Positions 36,661 to 55,137 of a stretch of DNA of 64,000 nt are shown one piece after another. The notes under the pieces are model-generated. The model saw only the letters and a program-made list of their open reading frames with translations. It was not told the DNA's origin and ran no database searches. Where the stretch lies: positions 32,001-96,000 of the IMG/VR virus record IMGVR_UViG_3300042402_001861. The stretch is one strand, 5' to 3'. Origin of the DNA: a virus. Both the position numbers and the translations under genes were made by a program. Positions within the stretch are counted from its first letter, which is position 1. Each line of letters opens with the position of its first letter.

Positions 36661-37779
36661 ATGGAAATCAATCATCTTTCAAACGCTCTTGATTCGGTCA
36701 ACGAAAAGGATGCTGTTTCCTTCAAGTCCGCCCTTTCTCAGCATTTGAACAACCGTCTTTTCACCGCATTGCAGGCAAGAAAGGCTGAAGTTGCCAAGGA
36801 GATGATTGGTGAAAAGTCCGTTGTTTCTGAAGCCAATGTAATCGCTCCTTCTGCTCCCCCTACACAAGGATTTGCAAAGAAGCCCGATGCATTCAAGGTC
36901 GATCCCGCCAAGGCAAAAATCGAAATGCAGAAAGCAAAGTCGATGGTCGTGGCCAATAAGGCAAAGATGGCGGCGGTCGATGTCAAGAAGAATGTCCTTG
37001 GTCCCAAGGAACTTGAAACCATGCAGAAGCAGATCGCTGCTGTTGCTGACAATAGCGTTGACATCGGATCGCTAAAGCCTGTTCCCGGCGGCTTTGAAGT
37101 AAAGAAGGCTGCTGACGGAGGGCTTGATCCAAATCAGGAAAAGGAATACCTGATGAAGACCTTCAATCACAACGGGAAAGTTGTCGAATTGAAGCAAGTC
37201 GGCCTTGGGTTCTCCCGTCCGATCCGTGCATACATCGACGGTGTTCGTTGGAATTTCTTCCCGAGCATGGGCAAGGCCATGGAAATGACTAAGGAATACA
37301 TCGAGATGGAAAGTGGCGCTGCAAAGAAGGAAGAGGTGCAGCAAGATGGGCAATTGGCCGAGAAGGTCGATCTTGACGGCAGAACGAAGATTGTTCGTGA
37401 TACCGTTGCGAGAATCGAACAGTATCGCAAGTTGCGTTCGGAGAAGACAAAGCCTGCTGTGGAAAACAAGGAAAACAAGTTTGCCGGAATCTATGATGAC
37501 GGCAGCGGTAAGGGAGCCTTCATTCCGCAACCAATCGACACGGGCAAGCAACATCCGTTCTTCAGAAAGACCGTGACCGAAGGTGTTCTTGACGAATTCA
37601 AGTCGATGTTTAAGAAGGAAAACATCACGGTTCGCGAGGGCGACAAGGAAGAGTACGAGCGTTTCTTCAAGGTAGCCATGAAGAAGTTTGGAATCTCAAG
37701 CCCCACCGATCTCAAGACCCCCGAGCAAAAGAAGAAGTTCTTCGATTATGTCAAGAAGAACTACAAGGGAAACGATTGA
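36661..37779 (+). CDS. Prohead core protein, gp67-like N-terminus with additional modules
   Basis: Follows the portal gene; 'FKSALSQHLNNRLFTALQARKAEVAKEM'; acidic cleavage-like linkers; C-terminal 'YERFFKVAMKKFGISSP...KFFDYVKKNYK'. Confidence 0.65.
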   Translation: MEINHLSNALDSVNEKDAVSFKSALSQHLNNRLFTALQARKAEVAKEMIGEKSVVSEANVIAPSAPPTQGFAKKPDAFKVDPAKAKIEMQKAKSMVVANKAKMAAVDVKKNVLGPKELETMQKQIAAVADNSVDIGSLKPVPGGFEVKKAADGGLDPNQEKEYLMKTFNHNGKVVELKQVGLGFSRPIRAYIDGVRWNFFPSMGKAMEMTKEYIEMESGAAKKEEVQQDGQLAEKVDLDGRTKIVRDTVARIEQYRKLRSEKTKPAVENKENKFAGIYDDGSGKGAFIPQPIDTGKQHPFFRKTVTEGVLDEFKSMFKKENITVREGDKEEYERFFKVAMKKFGISSPTDLKTPEQKKKFFDYVKKNYKGND

Positions 37780-38632: not shown

Positions 38633-39280
38633 ATGAAACTGTTCTGCGACCTAAACGAAAGCATCGAAGTCCTGACCGAGGAGACTGCTCCCGGACAGAA
38701 GAACTATTACATCGAAGGCGTGTTCCTGCAAGGGGACATCACCAACCGCAACAAGCGCCGCTATCCGATTGAAACCTTGATGAAGGAAGTAAAGCGGTAC
38801 AACGAGCAGTTTGTCAAGCAGAAGCGGGCTTTCGGTGAGTTGGGCCACCCCGAGGGTCCGACCATCAATCTTGAGAGAGTCAGCCACATGATCACCGAAC
38901 TTCGCTGTGAAGGCAAGAACTTCATGGGCAAGGCCAAGATCATGGACACCCCATACGGCAAGATTGTAAAAAACCTCATTGATGAGGGTGCAAAGTTGGG
39001 TGTTTCTAGCCGTGGAATGGGTTCCCTAGAAGAGCGCAATGGAGTCAATGTCGTAAAGGATGACTTCCAACTTGCAACAGCAGCAGACATCGTTGCCGAT
39101 CCATCGGCTCCCGAGGCATTTGTCCGTGGGATCATGGAAGGCAAGGAATGGGTATGGGAAAGCGGACGGTTGGTCGAAAAGGACATAGTACAGATCAAGA
39201 AGGACATTTTGAAAACCAACTCCCGCAAGTTGGAAGAAGCCAAGATAAACGCATTCAATAAGTTCCTCCGGGGACTTTAA
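38633..39280 (+). CDS. gp21: Prohead protease gp21
   Basis: 'YIEGVFLQGDITNRNKRRYP', 'GELGHPEGPTINLERVSH', 'GVSSRGMGS', 'ADIVADPSAPEAFV'. Confidence 0.98.
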   Translation: MKLFCDLNESIEVLTEETAPGQKNYYIEGVFLQGDITNRNKRRYPIETLMKEVKRYNEQFVKQKRAFGELGHPEGPTINLERVSHMITELRCEGKNFMGKAKIMDTPYGKIVKNLIDEGAKLGVSSRGMGSLEERNGVNVVKDDFQLATAADIVADPSAPEAFVRGIMEGKEWVWESGRLVEKDIVQIKKDILKTNSRKLEEAKINAFNKFLRGL

Positions 39281-39326: not shown

Positions 39327-40454
39327 ATGGACTCATTCAAGAACAACGAAGTAGAGGAAATCCTCGAAGAGGAAATCCTCGAAACCGAAGAGCAGACCGA
39401 CGAGGCCACCAACGAGGCTGACGAAGCCATCGAAGAGGCCACAGATTCCGCATCCAAGCAGAAGTCCAATGTGGCTGCTGCCAAGCAAATGGGTCAGGGT
39501 GCTGCCGTTGGTGCTGCTTCCCTCCCCAAGGAGTCCCCCAAGTACAAGGGACTCTACAAGGACGGCACAGGCAAGGGTGCAATCATCCCTGAGCCAATCG
39601 ACACCGATGATGTCGAGGGTGATGCCGATGTTGCTTCCAACGAGAAGCAAATGAAGAATGTGGACAAGAAGCGTATGGCCAAGGAAGATGTTGCCGTACA
39701 CATGGATGCCATGTTCAACGGCGAAGAACTCAGCGAAGAGTTCAAGACCAAGGCTTCCACAATCTTCGAAACCGCCGTCAACGAGCGCATCGAAGCCATT
39801 GCCGAGGAACTTGAGACTGAATTCGAGACTCGTCTTCTGTCCGCACAGGAGCAGATCAAGAACGAGTTGACCGAGCAGTTGGATTCCTACCTCTCCTATG
39901 TAATCGAAGAGTGGATGGAAGAGAACCGCCTCGCCGTGGAGAAGGGCATTCGCAACGAAGTCACCGAGCAGTTCATCGAAGGTCTTCGTTCGCTCTTCCT
40001 ACAGCACAACATCGAAGTTCCTGCTTCCAAGGTTGATCTTGTCGATGAGATGGCCGAGAAGGTCGAAGAACTCACCGGCAAACTCAACGAAGAAATTCAG
40101 AAGAATGTCGAGATGTCCAAGACTGTCGGTCAGTTGCGCCGCAGCGACATCCTTGACGAACAATGCGATGGTCTTGCCGATACGCAGAAGGAGCGTTTCA
40201 AGAAGTTGGCCGAGGGCGTAGCCTTCGAAAGCGAAGATGATTACCGCAGCAAGTTGGAAATCATCCGCGAGTCCTACTTCGGCGTTGGCTCGACCGAGAC
40301 AGACTCGGAGGGCGGCGAAGAGACAGTTGCTGAGGCTTCGGATGAAGTTGGCGACAGCATCGACGGTGATGATGTTGCTGCCGAGCCAAAGGAAACCATC
40401 AGCGAGTCGATGAGTGTGTACGCAAAGGCACTCTCGCGACTCAATCGTAAGTGA
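39327..40454 (+). CDS. gp22: Prohead scaffold protein gp22
   Basis: Acidic; 'LSEEFKTKASTIFETAV', 'LDSYLSYVIEEWMEENRLAVEKGIR', 'YRSKLEIIRESYF'. Confidence 0.95.
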   Translation: MDSFKNNEVEEILEEEILETEEQTDEATNEADEAIEEATDSASKQKSNVAAAKQMGQGAAVGAASLPKESPKYKGLYKDGTGKGAIIPEPIDTDDVEGDADVASNEKQMKNVDKKRMAKEDVAVHMDAMFNGEELSEEFKTKASTIFETAVNERIEAIAEELETEFETRLLSAQEQIKNELTEQLDSYLSYVIEEWMEENRLAVEKGIRNEVTEQFIEGLRSLFLQHNIEVPASKVDLVDEMAEKVEELTGKLNEEIQKNVEMSKTVGQLRRSDILDEQCDGLADTQKERFKKLAEGVAFESEDDYRSKLEIIRESYFGVGSTETDSEGGEETVAEASDEVGDSIDGDDVAAEPKETISESMSVYAKALSRLNRK

Positions 40455-40539: not shown

Positions 40540-41910
40540 ATGGACTTGACAATTTCCGAAGCACTACAGAAGAAGTGGAAGGCCATCGTTGAACACGCTG
40601 ACCTCCCTGAGATCAAGGATTCGTGGCGCAAGACCGTCACGACTCAACTCCTTGAGAATCAGGAGCAGTACCTCAAGGAAGCCGCTCCCACCAACCTCTC
40701 TAACAACCTCCCCGGCGATTCGACCGGCAATGTGGCTAAGTGGGATCCGATCCTCATCAGCCTCGTTCGCCGTGCAATGCCGAACCTGATCGCCTATGAC
40801 ATCTGCGGCGTTCAGCCGATGAGCGGCCCGACTGGGCTTATCTTCGCCCTCCGCAGCCGTTACAACAGCCAGACTGGTGCCGAGGCTCTGTTCCAAGAGG
40901 CCGACACTCGCTTTGGTGGTTCGGGTGGCACACCGTCCTACACCGGCGCTGGTTACACCGGTGGCCTCACGCAGGGTCCGGGCGTTGATCCCTTCTTCGG
41001 TGCTGCTGATGCCTCGCTGGCTGATGGCGTTGCCGATTCGTCGGCTGTCAGCCGTGCCATGACCACCCTCATGGGTGAGGCTCTTGGTGATGCTGCTAAC
41101 AATGCCTTCGCTCAGATGGCATTCAGCATCGAGAAGACCACGGTAACTGCCAAGACTCGTGCCCTGAAGGCCGAGTACACGATGGAACTCGCCCAAGACC
41201 TGAAGGCTATTCACGGTCTTGATGCCGAGACAGAACTCGCCAACATTCTTTCGAGCGAGATTCTGGCTGAGATCAACCGCGAGGTTGTTCGCACCATCTA
41301 CCGTAACGCCAAGTTGGGCGCTAAGGCTGGCACGACACAGACCCGTGGAGTGTTCGATCTCAATGTCGATTCCAACGGTCGTTGGTCGGTTGAGAAGTTC
41401 AAGGGTCTGCTGTTCCAGATTGAGCGTGAGTGCAACCAGATCGCCAAGGAAACTCGTCGTGGCAAGGGCAACTTCGTCCTCTGCTCGTCGGATGTTGCTT
41501 CGGCTCTGGCCATGTCGGGCGTTCTTGACTATGCTCCGGCTCTCAGCACCAACCTTCAGGTGGACGATACGGGCAACACCTTCGCCGGTGTTCTCAACGG
41601 TCGCCTCCGTGTTTACATCGATCCGTATTACTCATCGACACTCGCTTCGGACTTCTTCTGTGTCGGCTATAAGGGTTCCAGCCCATACGATGCTGGTATG
41701 TTCTACTGCCCCTATGTGCCGCTACAGATGGTCCGTGCAGTCGGTGAGCAGTCTTTCCAGCCGAAGATCGGCTTCAAGACTCGCTACGGCATGGTCAACA
41801 ACCCCTTCATCATTGGCAACGACAACTCGCCAATCGCTGATGTGGACAATGCCAACGCTGCTCGTAGCAACCAGTACTACCGTATCGTCAAGGTCAACAA
41901 CCTCTTCTGA
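40540..41910 (+). CDS. gp23: Major capsid protein gp23
   Basis: 'WDPILISLVRRAMPNLIAYDICGVQPMSGPTGLIFA', 'ALKAEYTMELAQDLKAIHGLDAE', 'FQPKIGFKTRYG'. Confidence 0.99.
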   Translation: MDLTISEALQKKWKAIVEHADLPEIKDSWRKTVTTQLLENQEQYLKEAAPTNLSNNLPGDSTGNVAKWDPILISLVRRAMPNLIAYDICGVQPMSGPTGLIFALRSRYNSQTGAEALFQEADTRFGGSGGTPSYTGAGYTGGLTQGPGVDPFFGAADASLADGVADSSAVSRAMTTLMGEALGDAANNAFAQMAFSIEKTTVTAKTRALKAEYTMELAQDLKAIHGLDAETELANILSSEILAEINREVVRTIYRNAKLGAKAGTTQTRGVFDLNVDSNGRWSVEKFKGLLFQIERECNQIAKETRRGKGNFVLCSSDVASALAMSGVLDYAPALSTNLQVDDTGNTFAGVLNGRLRVYIDPYYSSTLASDFFCVGYKGSSPYDAGMFYCPYVPLQMVRAVGEQSFQPKIGFKTRYGMVNNPFIIGNDNSPIADVDNANAARSNQYYRIVKVNNLF

Positions 41911-47983: not shown

Positions 47984-49711
47984 ATGATTAGATTTGAAAA
48001 ACTCCGATGGAAGAATTTGCTCTCTACCGGACAGTATTTCACGGAAATCGACCTGACAAAGGCCAACACGACATTGATTTGTGGAGAGAACGGCGCAGGG
48101 AAATCCACGATGCTGGATGCCCTGTGCTTCGTTCTTTTTGGAAAGCCTTATCGCAACATCAACCTTCCGCAGTTGGTCAACAGCATCAATCAGAAGGATT
48201 CCGTGGTGGAGATTGAATTCACCATCGGCAAGGATTCCTACAAGGTGATCCGTGGTCAGGCACCGAAGTTGTTTGAAGTACACAAGAACGGCAAGTTGAT
48301 AGATCAGGAAGCAAAGAGCAAGGACTATCAACGAATGTTCGAAGAGCAGATTCTTCGAATGAACTACAAGTCGTTCTGTCAGGTTGTCATCCTTGGTTCG
48401 GCCAACTATGTTCCGTTCATGCGGCTTGTGGCTGCGGAGCGACGATCCATCGTTGAGACTATCCTTGACATCAACATCTTCAGCACGATGAATGTGATCC
48501 TCAAGGGAAAGGTTTCGCAGAACCGAGAGGAACTTGTCGAACTTGAGGGCAAGATTGCCGTCCTGAAGGAGCGTATCTCCTTGCAGAAGAAGTACATGGA
48601 GGAGAAGACCAAGGACGAGAAGGACATCGTTGAGAAGTATCAGACCGAGATCAACGAGGCATTGGAGCGAATCGAAACTATCAAGAAAGAACTTTCCGAT
48701 CATCAGCAGCATCTGTCAGAATACCTTGAGAAGATCGATGACAAGCCCCTGATCGAAAGCAACAAGGCGAACCTTGATTCGTTGCAGAAGCAGTTGACAA
48801 CAAAGATCAAGAGCCTGAACACAAGCATCGACTTCTACGAAAAGAACGACACTTGTCCAACCTGTACGCAGTCCATCGGGAGCGATTTCAAGGAATCCGC
48901 CAAGAGCGGACTTGCATCGAAGAAGAGGGAAGTGGAGACTGCCATGGAAGAGATTGGCAAGCAGATGACCAAGGTGGCAGAACGGATGGAGGAATTGCGG
49001 GAAACCGTCCTTGCAATGAAGGAGATTGAGTCGGACATCAATGACTGCAAGAATGAACTGTCCATGCAGAAGAAGTTCATCGACAAGACCAAGCAGAAAC
49101 TTGAGGAAGCCAAGGCTCCCAAGACCGATGATTCGAAGGAAAAGGAGGAGTTTGCCAAGAGCATTGCCGATGAGGCAGAACTTGTATCCTCACGCAACGA
49201 GTTGGTGGACACTCAGTACTACTATGGCGTGGCTTCAACCCTCCTGAAGGACTCGGGCATCAAGAGCAGGATCATCAAGCATTACATTCCCGTCATCAAC
49301 AAGGTAATCAATCAGTACCTGACGCAGATGGGCCTGTTCGTGAATTTCAATCTTGACGAGGAGTTCAACGAAACGATCCTGTCTCGCCATCGCGATACCT
49401 TCACCTATGCATCCTTCAGCGAGGGAGAGAAGAAGAAGATCGATCTTGCCTTGCTGTTTGCATGGAGGGCAATTGCACAGATGAAGAATTCGGTGTCAAC
49501 AAACCTGTTGATCCTTGACGAGGTGCTTGACGGAAGTCTTGATGATGCAGCCTCCGAGTCCTTCCTTGACTTGCTGAAGGGATTGGACAACGACACGAAT
49601 GTGTTCGTGATAAGCCACAAGCCCAAGGAACTACTTGAGTCCAAGTTCAGCAGGCTACTTACCTTCGTCAAGCGAAACAACTTCAGCAGTATCGCAAGCA
49701 CGAAGGCTTGA
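47984..49711 (+). CDS. gp46: Recombination ATPase gp46 (Rad50/SbcC-like)
   Basis: Walker A 'GENGAGKST', zinc hook 'CPTC', 'SFSEGEK', 'LILDEVLDGSLD', 'ISH'. Confidence 0.97.
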   Translation: MIRFEKLRWKNLLSTGQYFTEIDLTKANTTLICGENGAGKSTMLDALCFVLFGKPYRNINLPQLVNSINQKDSVVEIEFTIGKDSYKVIRGQAPKLFEVHKNGKLIDQEAKSKDYQRMFEEQILRMNYKSFCQVVILGSANYVPFMRLVAAERRSIVETILDINIFSTMNVILKGKVSQNREELVELEGKIAVLKERISLQKKYMEEKTKDEKDIVEKYQTEINEALERIETIKKELSDHQQHLSEYLEKIDDKPLIESNKANLDSLQKQLTTKIKSLNTSIDFYEKNDTCPTCTQSIGSDFKESAKSGLASKKREVETAMEEIGKQMTKVAERMEELRETVLAMKEIESDINDCKNELSMQKKFIDKTKQKLEEAKAPKTDDSKEKEEFAKSIADEAELVSSRNELVDTQYYYGVASTLLKDSGIKSRIIKHYIPVINKVINQYLTQMGLFVNFNLDEEFNETILSRHRDTFTYASFSEGEKKKIDLALLFAWRAIAQMKNSVSTNLLILDEVLDGSLDDAASESFLDLLKGLDNDTNVFVISHKPKELLESKFSRLLTFVKRNNFSSIASTKA

Positions 49712-49714
49712 TCG

Positions 49715-52189
49715 TCAGTCCGACAACTTGACAGTAATCATGTACTGCTTCTTGGGTGATACCTTGAGCATTGCCGCTGCCTTCTGTTGTGCAGCGAAAG
49801 AAGTTGGAGCCTGAACCGAAATCTTCTTTCCCGAATAGAATGCGATGTAATTGTACATCTTCTCTTCGGTGACTTTGGTTTCTTCCTTCTTTGAAGATTT
49901 GCCTACCTTTTGTCCCTTACCGATCTTCTTCAACATCTTTTCTCTTTTGGCATCTGCACGAAGACCGGCTTGAACCTTGGCCTGAGCCTCGCGGGAAGTC
50001 TCAAATCCGCCACCCCAACTTCCTGCCTCGTCAAGTTCTACTTCTTCCTTCTTGATCTTCGAACCATACTTCTTGCCGAAGGAAATCATGTCCATTGCGG
50101 CGGCAAGATTGTCCTTGGCATCCTGAAGGCTCATGCCATTTTCCCTCAGTTTCTTGGGATCGTTGATGATCGACTTGAGCCAAACGACGGAATTCTTTAA
50201 TTGCTTTTCTGTCGGCTGTGCAAATCCCTCGGCTACGACCATCTGATTGTCGTTGATTGCCTTGGCGATCTTCTTGCCGGAGATGCGTCCCGATGGCTTC
50301 TTGCCGGGTGCGCTCAGGCGATACATCGGCTCACCCATGTAGGAAGTGTCATACATCAGGGTGTAGACGGGACCAACCTCTAGGTTTGCAAATGCCACGG
50401 GTCGGTTCAACTTGATCATACGGACACCCTTGAGGACTGCCTTGTAGTCCTCAACCACTTCGACTTCTTCATTCTCCTCAACGCTTTCGCCAAAGAAAGT
50501 CTCAAAGTGATCGTTGACGAGATTGGCGGTGTTGAACCCCATGAACCTCTTCTCAACCCCGTGCTTGTTGAGAATGGCAGTAACGGATGCAAGACGCATG
50601 ACTCCTTGAGCAACACCACCACCCTTCTGCTGCTTCATCAGAGACTTGAGTTCTGCAATTGCAGCCTTGGGAATCGAATACATGAAGTTTTCGATTGCTC
50701 TCTTGGTTGCACTCTCAGAAACTTCGACTTCTTCTTTCTTGAGCATCTTGGTTGGATTCGCCTTGAAGAGTTCTGATGCTTTGAACTGTTTTTGTTTATT
50801 GTCGGGAAGCACAAGAGTGAACAATCCACCTACCACATTCTTGGATGCGGTATAACCAATCAGTTGCCCTCTCTTGTTCATTCCAGGAATCCATAGCATC
50901 TCGCCCTTCTTGAATGGCTTTGGGAATGAATCCTTTGCTTCTGCCACTTCGACTTCTTCCTTGTGAACCTTCTGCTTCGGAACTGTGATACTTGCAGGCT
51001 CACCGACATCAACCACATAGCCACCGCCATGTTGCTGTGCCTTGCCTGTGCCGCCATCATCGAAGCGAACAATCTTGCCGCTGACCATCTTGCCCTTGTG
51101 GGGAACCTTTACCTTGTCGCCTGCCTTGAACTGTTCGGTAACCTCAACATCAACCTCAAAGCCCTCTGCCTTCACATACTTGATATGCCTTGTGATATCC
51201 CATTTTTCAACTACAGGCTTTCCACCTTCGCCTTCGTCTGTGACAATGTAGCAAACGGTTCCCTTGACATTCGCTGCCCGCCAGTCTCCCTTGCTCGTAT
51301 AATCCTTTCGAGAAACACAAACTTCGTGAGGATAGCCATGACTCTTGCCCCATGAGTCCTGCGAGATGCGATATTCAAATGCTTGCTTGCCCGTCTTCTC
51401 GTAGAATCTGCCAAGGACTTTTTCATCGGGATGTGCGTATGCTTCATCGACTTCTTCCTTCACGGGATTGCCTGTCATCGCATGTTTACGAGCAGCCCGT
51501 TCGGTTCGATAAATCTTCACAACCTTGCCGTCCTTGGTGACTACTGCCTTGCCCTTGGGGTGGTGAAGATTGGTGCGAAGTCCGTTGTCCTTTGCCTCTT
51601 CGATCTCACCGTCTTCGATGATTTCCTCTTCCTCTACCTCTTCCTTCTTGCCCTGCTTCTTTGCAAGGATCTTTGCCTTCACCCCTTGATTTACTTGCTT
51701 GAGTTGGTCGGGAGTCAACTTTGTCTTTTCGGTCAGGGTCTGCTCACGCATTTCCCAAGCCTCTTCGACGGTTTCGATGATGACCCATCCGCTCTTGATG
51801 TAACTCTGCACATCCTTAGCGGCAATGACATCAAGGTCTTGGTCATCCTTGCCCCACATGATTCGGCTTCCCGGCATCCCCTGCTTCTTCTTGCGAAGTC
51901 CGCTGAACTGCTTGACGAAGAACATCGGAACCTTGTAGTGCATCAGACGGGCAACCGTGGGGTTCACGGTCTTGGTCTGTCCCGGCGTGGCTACAGCCAC
52001 GGCTTCACGCATGATCTCCATCCCACGGGAGTCCTTGATAATCTGTGCAATGGCTGCATCGTCAGCACACTCAACGATGACCATTCCGTTGGCGCTGCCG
52101 ATTACCTTACCGGCGGCCTGCTTGCGGATCGTGTTTGCGGCAAAGTTAGCGAGGGAAAAGGTCGGAAACTTGAAAGTCAAACGATGCAT
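49715..52189 (-). CDS. Modular putative internal-head polyprotein
   Basis: 824 aa; about 11 Lys-rich segments separated by acidic linkers ending (V/I/L)-x-E; late box and AGGAG SD upstream. Confidence 0.7.
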   Translation of the reverse strand: MHRLTFKFPTFSLANFAANTIRKQAAGKVIGSANGMVIVECADDAAIAQIIKDSRGMEIMREAVAVATPGQTKTVNPTVARLMHYKVPMFFVKQFSGLRKKKQGMPGSRIMWGKDDQDLDVIAAKDVQSYIKSGWVIIETVEEAWEMREQTLTEKTKLTPDQLKQVNQGVKAKILAKKQGKKEEVEEEEIIEDGEIEEAKDNGLRTNLHHPKGKAVVTKDGKVVKIYRTERAARKHAMTGNPVKEEVDEAYAHPDEKVLGRFYEKTGKQAFEYRISQDSWGKSHGYPHEVCVSRKDYTSKGDWRAANVKGTVCYIVTDEGEGGKPVVEKWDITRHIKYVKAEGFEVDVEVTEQFKAGDKVKVPHKGKMVSGKIVRFDDGGTGKAQQHGGGYVVDVGEPASITVPKQKVHKEEVEVAEAKDSFPKPFKKGEMLWIPGMNKRGQLIGYTASKNVVGGLFTLVLPDNKQKQFKASELFKANPTKMLKKEEVEVSESATKRAIENFMYSIPKAAIAELKSLMKQQKGGGVAQGVMRLASVTAILNKHGVEKRFMGFNTANLVNDHFETFFGESVEENEEVEVVEDYKAVLKGVRMIKLNRPVAFANLEVGPVYTLMYDTSYMGEPMYRLSAPGKKPSGRISGKKIAKAINDNQMVVAEGFAQPTEKQLKNSVVWLKSIINDPKKLRENGMSLQDAKDNLAAAMDMISFGKKYGSKIKKEEVELDEAGSWGGGFETSREAQAKVQAGLRADAKREKMLKKIGKGQKVGKSSKKEETKVTEEKMYNYIAFYSGKKISVQAPTSFAAQQKAAAMLKVSPKKQYMITVKLSD

Positions 52190-52222
52190 AGGATCTCCTA
52201 TAGGGATGTAAAGACGCTCCCA

Positions 52223-52229
52223 TATTTAG
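52223..52229 (-). promoter_or_regulatory. T4-type late promoter box
   Basis: CTAAATA on -, 33 nt upstream of ATG 52189. Confidence 0.7.
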
Positions 52230-52242
52230 GAAATCCAGCGGA

Positions 52243-52686
52243 TTACTTAAGCCACTTCTTGTGCGTCAGCAGCATGAAGTCGATGACCTGTTGGGGGGTC
52301 TTCTCCACACACTCCAACTTGTGGACATTCTCCGACAGCACCCTGTCCTGCTCTATTTCTCGTTCAATTTTTTCAATTTCTTCCTTGGACGGGGGTGTCC
52401 AAGTATGAAGAACAACCGGAGTGTTTTTCAGTTCGCTCATGGAAGGCTCAAGTCCGTTCTTGGGTATGCAGTCCCAATCAAGAATGGGCTTGGACAGCCC
52501 CATGAGCATCAGATAGACATCCCGCATCAATTCTATTACCGTTTCCCCCATTGGCTGCACGGGCTCCTCGGTGACAGCCTGTATTCGGTTCTTGTTGTCG
52601 TAGAAGACTTCGTGAATGCCGTAGGAATAATACTTCTTGCCGTTGAAGGTGGTTGTCTTACGGACGATTCTGTAATCCCAACTCAT
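52243..52686 (-). CDS. Hypothetical protein
   Basis: 'MSWDYRIVRK...YGIHEVFYD'; GGAGG SD before ATG 52686; CTAAATA at 52722-52728. Confidence 0.7.
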   Translation of the reverse strand: MSWDYRIVRKTTTFNGKKYYSYGIHEVFYDNKNRIQAVTEEPVQPMGETVIELMRDVYLMLMGLSKPILDWDCIPKNGLEPSMSELKNTPVVLHTWTPPSKEEIEKIEREIEQDRVLSENVHKLECVEKTPQQVIDFMLLTHKKWLK

Positions 52687-52741
52687 CCGTTCCTCCCTTC
52701 TCCTACGGGACAAGACAAGATTATTTAGAAGAGTCCGAATC

Positions 52742-53338
52742 CTAGATGCGATCCGCGAGAACATCATATACCCTTCTTGGGATCTTCCTGTGTGCCTGCG
52801 CTCGGAAGTTTGCAGGCATCTTGGAAATCACTTTGTTACTGTGCATCAGGTCGGTTTCGAATGGCCAGAACTTGCGGTACTCCCGCATGAAGTAGTGGGC
52901 ATAGATGTAGCAGTTGGCCATCCGTGTGTATCTGTCAACATTCACGGGAAGGTTGTATTTCTTGATCAGGCGGATTGTACGCATCTCGCAATCCCGCTCC
53001 ATCTCACGAACGACTTCGAATGCAAGATCGATCTTCTTGTTTGGGTATTGCTTGCCGTTGAACCAATCATCGATGATTGCGTTGGACTTGTCGCTGCGTC
53101 GATAGACAGGTGACTTTTCGATCCATTGAAGGAAGTGGCAGTATTCGTGTAGCAAAGTTTCAAACCACAGTATGGATCTTCGTCCCACACGAATCTCCCC
53201 ATCACCGTCGTTGAAGTAACCCGATGTTCTGTATCCCCCGCAATTGACTTCCTTGCCTCGTCCCAAGACAAGGATGCAACCATGCTCTCGTAGATGCTCT
53301 CTGACATGACGCACAAACTTCCGTTGCGCTGCAAGCAT
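52742..53338 (-). CDS. Putative zincin-like metallopeptidase (HExxH)
   Basis: 'FETLLHEYCHFLQW' followed by 'MERDCE'; AAGGAG SD. Confidence 0.55.
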   Translation of the reverse strand: MLAAQRKFVRHVREHLREHGCILVLGRGKEVNCGGYRTSGYFNDGDGEIRVGRRSILWFETLLHEYCHFLQWIEKSPVYRRSDKSNAIIDDWFNGKQYPNKKIDLAFEVVREMERDCEMRTIRLIKKYNLPVNVDRYTRMANCYIYAHYFMREYRKFWPFETDLMHSNKVISKMPANFRAQAHRKIPRRVYDVLADRI

Positions 53339-54050: not shown

Positions 54051-55112
54051 TTACTCCTTCGGTGCGGCCTGAATGCCGTACTTGCTACGAGCAGTATCGC
54101 CTTCGTGATCGTTGTAGATTTTCTCAAAGTCACGCACAACAGAACTTGGTGGGACATTCTGTGCGATCAACTTTTGAATCGAATCGATGTCGCTTCCAAG
54201 GTAATGTGCCAACGACTTCCGTAGGCTGTCATCGGAAACCGGGGAGGACACACCGGCATTCTTGATCTTGAGTCCTACGAAACTCTTGATGACTCGCTGA
54301 GGAATCGTTGGACGAGGGATGTTCTTTCCCTTGGCATCCTTGACATCGATGCCAATCATGCTCGTAACAAGTGTCTTGCCGTCAAGAGGCTTGCCGTTCT
54401 TGTCGGAATAGAACACTTGTCCTTGACCGCCGCCAAGCACAAGATGGACTTCACCGTTGAGATTTGGAGGATATGCACCCTTGGCGACTTCACCCATGGT
54501 CTTGCCGACACCTTCGTGTGTCAGAAGCAGAATGTGGTCTGGAACACGGCGTGGGCGGTTGTCGTTGTTGACCATTGCCACTCGCCAGTTGGTGAGAACC
54601 CAGATGATGTGCAGATTGTTCTTTTGGTAGCCTGCGGAAATTAGGGTATCGGTGAGATTCTTGATCTCTTCGACATTCTTGAGGGTACGGTCAAAGATGA
54701 TGTTTGGCAACTGACCACCGTAAGCCTTTACCCCGATCTTCTGCTTGGCGTTGGCAATGATATGCGGAAGGAGCATGGTGGCAATGTGCTTCTGCTCAAT
54801 CGGCCAGTCCTTCAAGGCAAGGTGAATCTTTGAGACATCCTCGGGATTCCTGAAGTTGATGTCCTTGAACTGCACGAACTTGCTTTCCTTACCGGCAGCA
54901 AAGTGCAACTTTCCGATCTTTACGACCGCTTCCTTGAACGCATCGGGATCAACGACCTTGTAGTCGAATCCGTTCATCAGATTGGAGATTGCGTAACCCT
55001 TGCCACTACCGGCACCGCCTGCCATGAATACCACTTGACCGCTTCTTGCCCCGTTGTTGGGCATGATCAACTTTTCCTCAAGATAGTCTTTGAGTCCTTG
55101 AAACTCTTTCAT
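54051..55112 (-). CDS. P-loop kinase/ATPase (zeta-toxin/AAA_33-like)
   Basis: 'VVFMAGGAGSGKG' Walker A, 'VVDPDAFK', 'NIIFDRT', 'NDNRPRRVP'. Confidence 0.75.
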   Translation of the reverse strand: MKEFQGLKDYLEEKLIMPNNGARSGQVVFMAGGAGSGKGYAISNLMNGFDYKVVDPDAFKEAVVKIGKLHFAAGKESKFVQFKDINFRNPEDVSKIHLALKDWPIEQKHIATMLLPHIIANAKQKIGVKAYGGQLPNIIFDRTLKNVEEIKNLTDTLISAGYQKNNLHIIWVLTNWRVAMVNNDNRPRRVPDHILLLTHEGVGKTMGEVAKGAYPPNLNGEVHLVLGGGQGQVFYSDKNGKPLDGKTLVTSMIGIDVKDAKGKNIPRPTIPQRVIKSFVGLKIKNAGVSSPVSDDSLRKSLAHYLGSDIDSIQKLIAQNVPPSSVVRDFEKIYNDHEGDTARSKYGIQAAPKE

Positions 55113-55130: not shown

Positions 55131-55137
55131 TATTTAT
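55131..55137 (-). promoter_or_regulatory. T4-type late promoter box
   Basis: ATAAATA on -, then AAGGAG and ATG 55112. Confidence 0.75.

Follow-up and report, generated by a model that had tools for sequence, protein, structure and literature searches.

The long minus-strand open reading frame (ORF) at positions 49715-52189 of a 64,000-nucleotide stretch of uncultured viral DNA, here called ORF824, is a chain of about eleven small modules that fold independently and are unrelated to one another, with disordered acidic linkers between them. Comparison with homologous sequences shows that modules are gained, lost, exchanged and rearranged among its relatives, and that this happens exactly at these linkers. 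We consider it probable that ORF824 is a late-expressed cargo polyprotein, loaded into the phage head and processed by the prohead protease; loading and cutting are proposed because the linker peptide agrees with the rule by which the phage's own head protease cuts, and the case for cargo is a purely comparative one, made from sequences. The analysed stretch (the window, on whose scale all positions are given) comprises bases 32001-96000 of the 177-kb IMG/VR virus record IMGVR_UViG_3300042402_001861, which is about 98% complete. The virus is an uncultured T4-type myovirus of lakes: the window carries sheath, tube, portal, gp55, gp47 and gp46 genes, and its gp46 is only 46% identical to that of cyanophages. 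A first-pass annotation, made from the letters of the window, had described the ORF as an array of injected cargo proteins, and the frame that it gave is exact, with an ATG start and 824 amino acids (aa).

Read from the N-terminus, the parts of ORF824 are as follows; pLDDT (predicted local distance difference test score) refers to an AlphaFold model of the protein, pI is the isoelectric point and E the expectation value of a match.

49715-52189 (stop codon included), minus strand: ORF824, polyprotein ORF of 824 aa, ATG start at 52189.
51728-52189, minus strand: residues 1-154, N-terminal domain, pLDDT 80-95; ends QTLTE then K.
51596-51727, minus strand: residues 155-198, one helix and a long acidic linker; ends GEIEE then A.
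51443-51595, minus strand: residues 199-249, small basic module, pI 9.9, swapped for unrelated sequence in relative P0003; ends EEVDE then A.
51134-51442, minus strand: residues 250-352, all-beta module, phrog_23785 (E 6.8e-10); ends VEVTE then Q.
50939-51133, minus strand: residues 353-417, SH3-like beta-barrel, pLDDT 80-88; ends VEVAE then A.
50714-50938, minus strand: residues 418-492, second beta-barrel-like module, pI 9.7, replaced in P0003; ends VEVSE then S.
50450-50713, minus strand: residues 493-580, helical module; ends VEVVE then D.
50228-50449, minus strand: residues 581-654, basic module, pI 9.8; ends MVVAE then G.
50027-50227, minus strand: residues 655-721, helical module, pLDDT 88-96, weak match to phrog_3137; ends VELDE then A.
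49865-50026, minus strand: residues 722-775, basic helical segment, pI 10.1; ends TKVTE then E.
49718-49864, minus strand: residues 776-824, C-terminal basic module, pI 9.9, phrog_19202 (E 1.5e-3).

The ten linker endings quoted in the first-pass annotation are all present, at residues 154, 198, 249, 352, 417, 492, 580, 654, 721 and 775. The linkers are acidic and end in [V/I/L]-x-Glu, mostly as KEEVEVxE followed by Ala. The motif E[ILVM]xE occurs 10 times in ORF824 against 1.4 +/- 1.2 times in shuffled versions of the protein, and the longer EE[ILV][ED][ILV]xE four times against 0.00; none of 2000 shuffles matched either observed count. ORF824 is also the sole ORF of the 177-kb genome with five [ILVM]E[ILVM]xE motifs. 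All ten linkers fall in blocks of pLDDT <45 between confidently folded blocks of the AlphaFold model, so that an accessible aliphatic-x-Glu site lies in disordered sequence at each of the ten predicted boundaries between mature proteins. Further [ILV]xE sequences at residues 40, 139, 397, 513 and 683 lie inside folded blocks (pLDDT >80) and are not linkers; the first of these, MVIVE40, was considered as a propeptide cut site or linker and rejected because it is buried in a confident beta-strand of a folded domain. At the DNA level, a 27-nucleotide (nt) linker-coding unit, present in six copies, is the only repeat within the gene, and the modules are therefore mutually unrelated, as had been claimed.

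Seven of the 11 segments are basic (pI 9-11); the other four are neutral or acidic when their acidic tails are counted, so the earlier description of Lys-rich basic segments holds for the seven and not for the four. Segment sizes range from 4 to 13 kDa. The confident blocks of the model are residues 1-65, 90-140, 353-412, 492-567 and 659-709, and their separation by disordered linkers bears out the expectation that the segments fold separately. The segment list of the first-pass annotation needs one correction: the N-terminal segment is in fact two sub-modules, one at residues 1-65, whose elements follow the ferredoxin-like order beta-alpha-beta-beta-alpha-beta, and one at about 75-144. This N-terminal domain opens about 45 of 240 relatives, and a profile-free search of 1.8 billion representatives shows both sub-modules at internal positions of other proteins as well.

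The all-beta module at residues 250-352, modelled alone with its own alignment, again gives a compact all-beta structure with a disordered linker tail (pLDDT 79, predicted TM score 0.66), and a stand-alone homologue of 93 aa is found in Sinorhizobium phages of the phiM12 group. It matched no solved fold: Foldseek gave nothing at E <0.1, and the best VIA-align Z was 3.2. The two segments earlier read as KOW/SH3 barrels are barrels in the model and have weak tandem Tudor/KOW matches (Foldseek with the full model against the PDB, E about 5e-3), weakly suggesting SH3/Tudor/KOW-like modules at the level of fold only; the identification has no support beyond that level. The resemblance claimed between the last module and small stand-alone phage proteins is weak, amounting to the phrog_19202 match listed above and N4-like matches at E 0.3; in relative P0236 this module is internal, following ETEVTE then A. 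Pfam returned for ORF824 only a sub-threshold L21e match and the PDB sequence search returned none, and nothing of use came from the ESM Atlas for residues 1-154 or 250-352. No peptidase, known effector or LPD domain was found in the 824 aa by Pfam, nor a peptidase by PHROG. Single-linkage clustering of the inter-linker segments fell into one component and was not used.

The top structural match of the full model in BFVD, at a very low TM score, is A0A8S5L6X1 (1074 aa), annotated as 'prohead core protein serine protease'; it is possibly a protease fused to cargo modules, and we note it only as a lead.

The SH3-like module is the most widespread, and a search with the module alignment found it in 65 viral loci. 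Lake-metagenome contigs that match it diverge from ORF824 at 50946 and at 51118-51136, which are the module edges. In lake metagenome X14 the module (window 50916-51197) is 120-250x deep, compared with 6-9x for the rest of the gene, and it is evidently common to many abundant phages besides the one carrying ORF824.

A search of 5.8 billion proteins returned 168 relatives of 450-1440 aa and 127 shorter ones. Each has only some of the ORF824 modules, at 55-94% identity and often reordered, and 75-77% of local-alignment ends lie within 10 residues of a linker, compared with 29% for random positions. The closest relatives show single exchanges most clearly. Residues 485-824 of ORF824 recur with 100% identity in P0003 and residues 1-185 with 95%; residues 199-345 and 425-484 are exchanged there for unrelated sequence. 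In P0004, 96-100% identical elsewhere, residues 253-484 are exchanged for a single 80-aa module, and an additional 80-aa module is inserted at linker 771/772. Genes at the same place in two other genomes (L005, 1059 aa; L008, 953 aa), likewise convergent with gp46 and starting with the same N-terminal domain, differ from ORF824 in module sets and orders. The comparison of siblings that the first-pass annotation had called for thus finds modules shuffled, dropped and swapped at linkers, and an order that is not invariant. Among cultured phages ORF824 is nearly without relatives: a tblastn search of 50,697 records with the complete protein had no match at E 1e-5 and, at E 1, reached only the phiM12 group through module 250-352; separate searches with the SH3-like and the last module yielded no match, or matches at E >=0.3. 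A related-locus search with the whole of ORF824 gave no confirmed locus.

The linker core is a property of the family. Across 241 family proteins, [ILVM]E[ILVM]xE occurs 241 times, compared with 29 +/- 8 in shuffles. At these sites, where P1 Glu and P3 V/L/I are fixed by the search pattern itself, P2 is free, P1' is Ala in 43%, and the flanks read K-E-E-V-E-[VLI]-x-E then A. The SH3-like module, aligned in 14 different contexts (alignment A1), always has [ILV]-x-E directly ahead of it, whether what lies upstream is a leader or another module. Other lineages keep the same core in a different linker, ESVNE then A in a distant 229-kb phage (L058) and QETV[EA]E in P0252 (QETVEE then T). Microhomology for recombination alone would not require such a common core.

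P0252, of 1589 aa, contains 13 near-identical linkers of the form IQETV[EA]E then [TP]D, many of them about 53 aa apart, and its array may consist of repeated modules instead of unrelated ones.

In T4, proteins are directed to the prohead by a capsid-targeting sequence (CTS), MKTYQEFIAE (PMC8442874), in which targeting depends on residues 4 and 7 and processing on residues 8 and 10 (PMC9026906). As the defining mark of T4-type internal proteins we took an N-terminal CTS of about 10 residues with an aromatic residue at 4, a hydrophobic one at 7 and [L/I]-x-E at 8-10. In a pattern scan about ten other genes of this genome open with T4-CTS-like leaders of the type MKSFxxxI[ST]E (for example MKSFRGHITE, MKSFIAFISE and MVNFKSYISE). 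Many relatives of ORF824 do so too, their leaders ending in [ILV]-x-E: MMNEFQRRILAE then A, MWQHWQRIIKE then E, MYHFQRQIIEE then A, MKSFKELMAE then R, and MKTFKNYLKE then E. These leader-bearing relatives have ORF824 modules at up to 94% identity. Stand-alone homologues with T4-like capsid-targeting leaders exist as well: a 63-aa gene in L036 is a MNYKKYLVE leader followed by the SH3-like module alone, the architecture of a T4 internal protein. An 88-aa gene of the genome itself, which begins MQRFKNYISE, has 50% identity (E 1e-24) with a module inside the L052 polyprotein, where its counterpart is preceded by VNISE. Neither a single interdependent fold nor an invariant order without stand-alone homologues, the outcomes within reach of sequence data that had been named in advance as speaking against a cargo array, was found.

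In L058 and L062, three such polyproteins lie among the protease, scaffold and major capsid genes. Those of L058 (4709-10756; 499, 423 and 519 aa) belong to the 229-kb phage lineage, have linkers of the ESVNE then A form and leaders such as MIRLSKIVKE and MIKLNNLLNE, and lie around the prohead protease gene, directly upstream of the scaffold and major capsid genes.

The genome of ORF824 encodes a protease of the required type, and the gene has signals for late expression:

38633-39280, plus strand: gp21-type prohead serine protease (Pfam Peptidase_S77, E 2.5e-36), the presumed processing enzyme.
39327-40454, plus strand: scaffold gp22, a conserved and separate gene.
40540-41910: major capsid protein gp23.
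52223-52229, minus strand: late-promoter-like box CTAAATA, 33 nt upstream of the ORF824 ATG.
52195-52199, minus strand: Shine-Dalgarno sequence AGGAG, 5 nt ahead of the ORF824 ATG.

The gene thus has the late box and Shine-Dalgarno sequence of its own that were first ascribed to it, and runs convergently with gp46. We take [AC]TAAATA to be the local form of the T4-type late promoter because the genes for tail tube, sheath, gp22 and gp23 and further late genes of this phage have the box 20-70 nt upstream. Of its 18 copies in the window, at least 13 are followed within about 70 nt by a gene start on the same strand, including those of several minus-strand small genes (sites 52728, 55137, 60766 and 63044). 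The syntenic orthologues in L005 and L008 are likewise preceded by a late box, and no sigma-70-like promoter was found in 49500-52900. Two 151-nt metatranscriptome contigs (RNA run X20) map to the helical module at 50450-50713, a weak hint of transcription of ORF824 and too little to claim it. At least half of ORF824's sampled sequence words are contained in each of 19 lake-water metagenome runs from many studies, and at least six runs contain at least 97% of them.

Under the cargo-polyprotein proposal, the ORF824 gene would be transcribed late and its product would co-assemble into the prohead core, where the gp21-type serine protease of the phage would cut after the Glu of every linker. Some ten small proteins would be released, each with an acidic C-terminal tail; they would remain in the head with the DNA, as IPI-III of T4 do, and enter the next host together with it. 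The polyprotein format would allow one promoter and one loading event to deliver a changeable set of cargo in equal numbers. Architecture and mosaicism are direct readings of the sequences, from which we infer loading, cutting and injection. That they act in anti-defence or host takeover is a guess from the parallel with IPI and Alt.

The closest known system is that of IPI, IPII and IPIII, which are internal proteins of T4, and of Alt (PMC9026906). T4 gp21 cuts after Glu in L/I-x-E, and its first characterised site was a Glu-Ala bond in gp22 (PMC9026906). As in T4, the phage of ORF824 has a gp21-type protease and the site core is aliphatic-x-Glu, often followed by Ala; the predicted products are small and mostly basic, expression signals look late, content is hypervariable between related phages, and relatives of ORF824 and other genes of its genome have CTS leaders. 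Unlike T4, where one protein stands behind one leader of 10-19 aa, ORF824 has about eleven cargo units with internal predicted sites, begins with a folded domain in place of the defining CTS, and has mostly Val at P3. T4 gp22, gp67 and gp68 offer a second parallel, since gp21 cuts them into several fragments inside the prohead as proposed here; they are conserved and their fragments mostly leave the head, whereas ORF824 is hypervariable and made of folded modules. In giant phages the cleavage motif is A-x-E (SPN3US) or S/A/G-x-E (phiKZ), as compared with V-x-E in ORF824. Their head and ejection proteins (phiKZ, 201phi2-1, SPN3US gp53/gp54) resemble ORF824 in having a gp21-related protease and several post-Glu cuts per protein (PMC10052503, PMC5694885); the motif has three residues and the head cargo is ejected into the host (PMC10052503, PMC5694885). 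There the cuts degrade a long propeptide to leave one mature protein, whereas each piece of ORF824 is a folded, exchangeable module.

The polyvalent proteins of phages and conjugative elements (Iyer et al. 2017, PMC5512222) share with ORF824 the presence of many unrelated domains in one polypeptide that is mosaic and rapidly reshuffled; the class is defined by 2-15 unrelated domains in mosaic arrangement, and ORF824 has about 11 modules. Delivery of polyvalent proteins with the DNA and release of their domains by proteolysis have been proposed (PMC5512222). Unlike them, ORF824 contains no embedded zincin (MPTase) or other peptidase, so that processing would be in trans, by the prohead protease, at a repeated linker; at 40-100 aa its modules are also very small, and none belongs to the known enzymatic or anti-restriction domains. 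We regard ORF824 as a variation on both the T4 internal-protein system and the polyvalent proteins. In our literature searches no account of tailed-phage cargo polyproteins linked by protease sites came up.

A number of observations weigh against processing of ORF824 in the head. ORF824 has no N-terminal CTS: its first residues, MHRLTFKFP, form strand 1 of a folded domain (pLDDT about 90), and the first Glu comes no earlier than residue 40. Its P3 residue is mostly Val, whereas the T4 rule is Leu/Ile. The gene lies outside the head cluster, about 8 kb past gp23 and on the opposite strand. No module matches a family of known function, or an anti-defence or effector family (Pfam, PHROG, Foldseek, PDB sequence, VIA-align), and the only cultured-phage homologue, phiM12 gene 312, lies among small early-type genes and not among structural ones. 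The linker-coding DNA repeats could persist for recombination alone, which could also explain the module swaps at linkers. ORF824 could be a beads-on-a-string polyvalent protein whose linkers are spacers or in-frame recombination joints, acting whole in the late cytoplasm or delivered intact. In favour of this are the missing CTS and the 27-nt unit as the gene's only repeat, the presence of LPD29, a polyvalent-protein domain, in some relatives (P0027, P0030, P0058, P0099), and the example of N4 vRNAP, a polyvalent protein packaged unprocessed (PMC5512222). We nevertheless think it unlikely, because it gives no reason for a constant P1 Glu and aliphatic P3 where linker DNA and consensus differ, nor for leaders that end in the linker motif directly before the same modules; the lack of any embedded peptidase or known effector domain found in ORF824 also speaks against it.

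Cutting in the prohead could alternatively serve assembly, with ORF824 as a core or scaffold accessory like gp22, gp67 and gp68, its pieces being expelled or used only for assembly or for neutralising the charge of the DNA, and not injected as effectors. That gp21 cuts the T4 core proteins into multiple fragments (PMC9026906), that the L058 polyproteins flank protease and scaffold genes, and that most modules are basic would all fit. Such a role appears quite improbable, however, given that assembly proteins are conserved genes of the head-morphogenesis cluster, and ORF824 lies elsewhere and is hypervariable even between near-identical genomes and syntenic orthologues. Its modules are moreover compact folded domains that also occur as stand-alone leader-bearing genes, like the T4 internal proteins, and the phage has a separate conserved scaffold at 39327-40454. 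The want of a CTS and the location beyond the head cluster would suit a cytoplasmic polyprotein that some other protease cuts outside the capsid, or a spurious joining of adjacent small genes through an assembly or sequencing error. Either seems very improbable: the ORF is uninterrupted in many independent lake metagenomes and has >290 homologous long ORFs, no protease or peptidase domain was found in it, and gp21-type enzymes are active only in the assembled prohead (PMC9026906). An assembly artefact in particular was rejected on the presence of the ORF824 stretch in those many metagenomes.

If the cargo-polyprotein proposal is true, the T4 internal-protein paradigm widens: in place of one protein behind one leader there would be a changeable cassette of about ten proteins loaded into the capsid, with the prohead protease as the enzyme that releases them. 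The proposal would account for the long 'hypothetical' genes of a large family in uncultured T4-like phages (>290 homologues, 65 viral loci) and would allow injected phage proteins to be predicted from genome sequence alone by a simple rule. Hundreds of small domains would become candidates for first-minute host takeover or anti-defence, and the arrangement would suggest a natural design for multi-cargo T4 delivery vectors. With considerable reserve, we raise the broader idea of a plug-in cargo grammar in T4-like phages of lakes and other habitats, in which any small domain flanked by [ILV]-x-E could be chained, and modules would be recombined at linkers, loaded in one event, cleaved in the head into some ten proteins and injected jointly. 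Here the folded N-terminal domain of ORF824 might act as a CTS-independent head-recruitment signal, and the modules might form a large, untapped pool of first-minute takeover or anti-defence functions.

Three further ORFs of the same genome, beyond the window and given here on its scale, carry linkers of this kind:

86390-86860: 156-aa ORF, linker KKEGVEVTE then D.
118733-121918: 1061-aa ORF, linker SLKEEVIVEE then T.
122235-123152: 305-aa ORF, linkers KKEEVVDE then A.

Relatives carry polyproteins at positions syntenic with the first (L003, L006, L007, L009) and the second (L014-L030).

Between the portal and protease genes, a 372-aa ORF at 36661-37779 (plus strand) contains a motif near-identical to one in scaffold gp22 (GKGAFIPQPIDT compared with GKGAIIPEPIDT). 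It has [ILV]xE sites VVSE then A and TVTE then G, and a CTS-like start (MKTFNHNGKVVE) lies within it at 37153; its product may be a scaffold-related core protein. Finally, a 353-aa P-loop protein resembling Zeta_toxin (phrog_5268) is encoded at 54051-55112 on the minus strand, with its own late-type box ATAAATA at 55137, and homologues of it also lie near polyprotein genes in L003, L006, L007 and L009.

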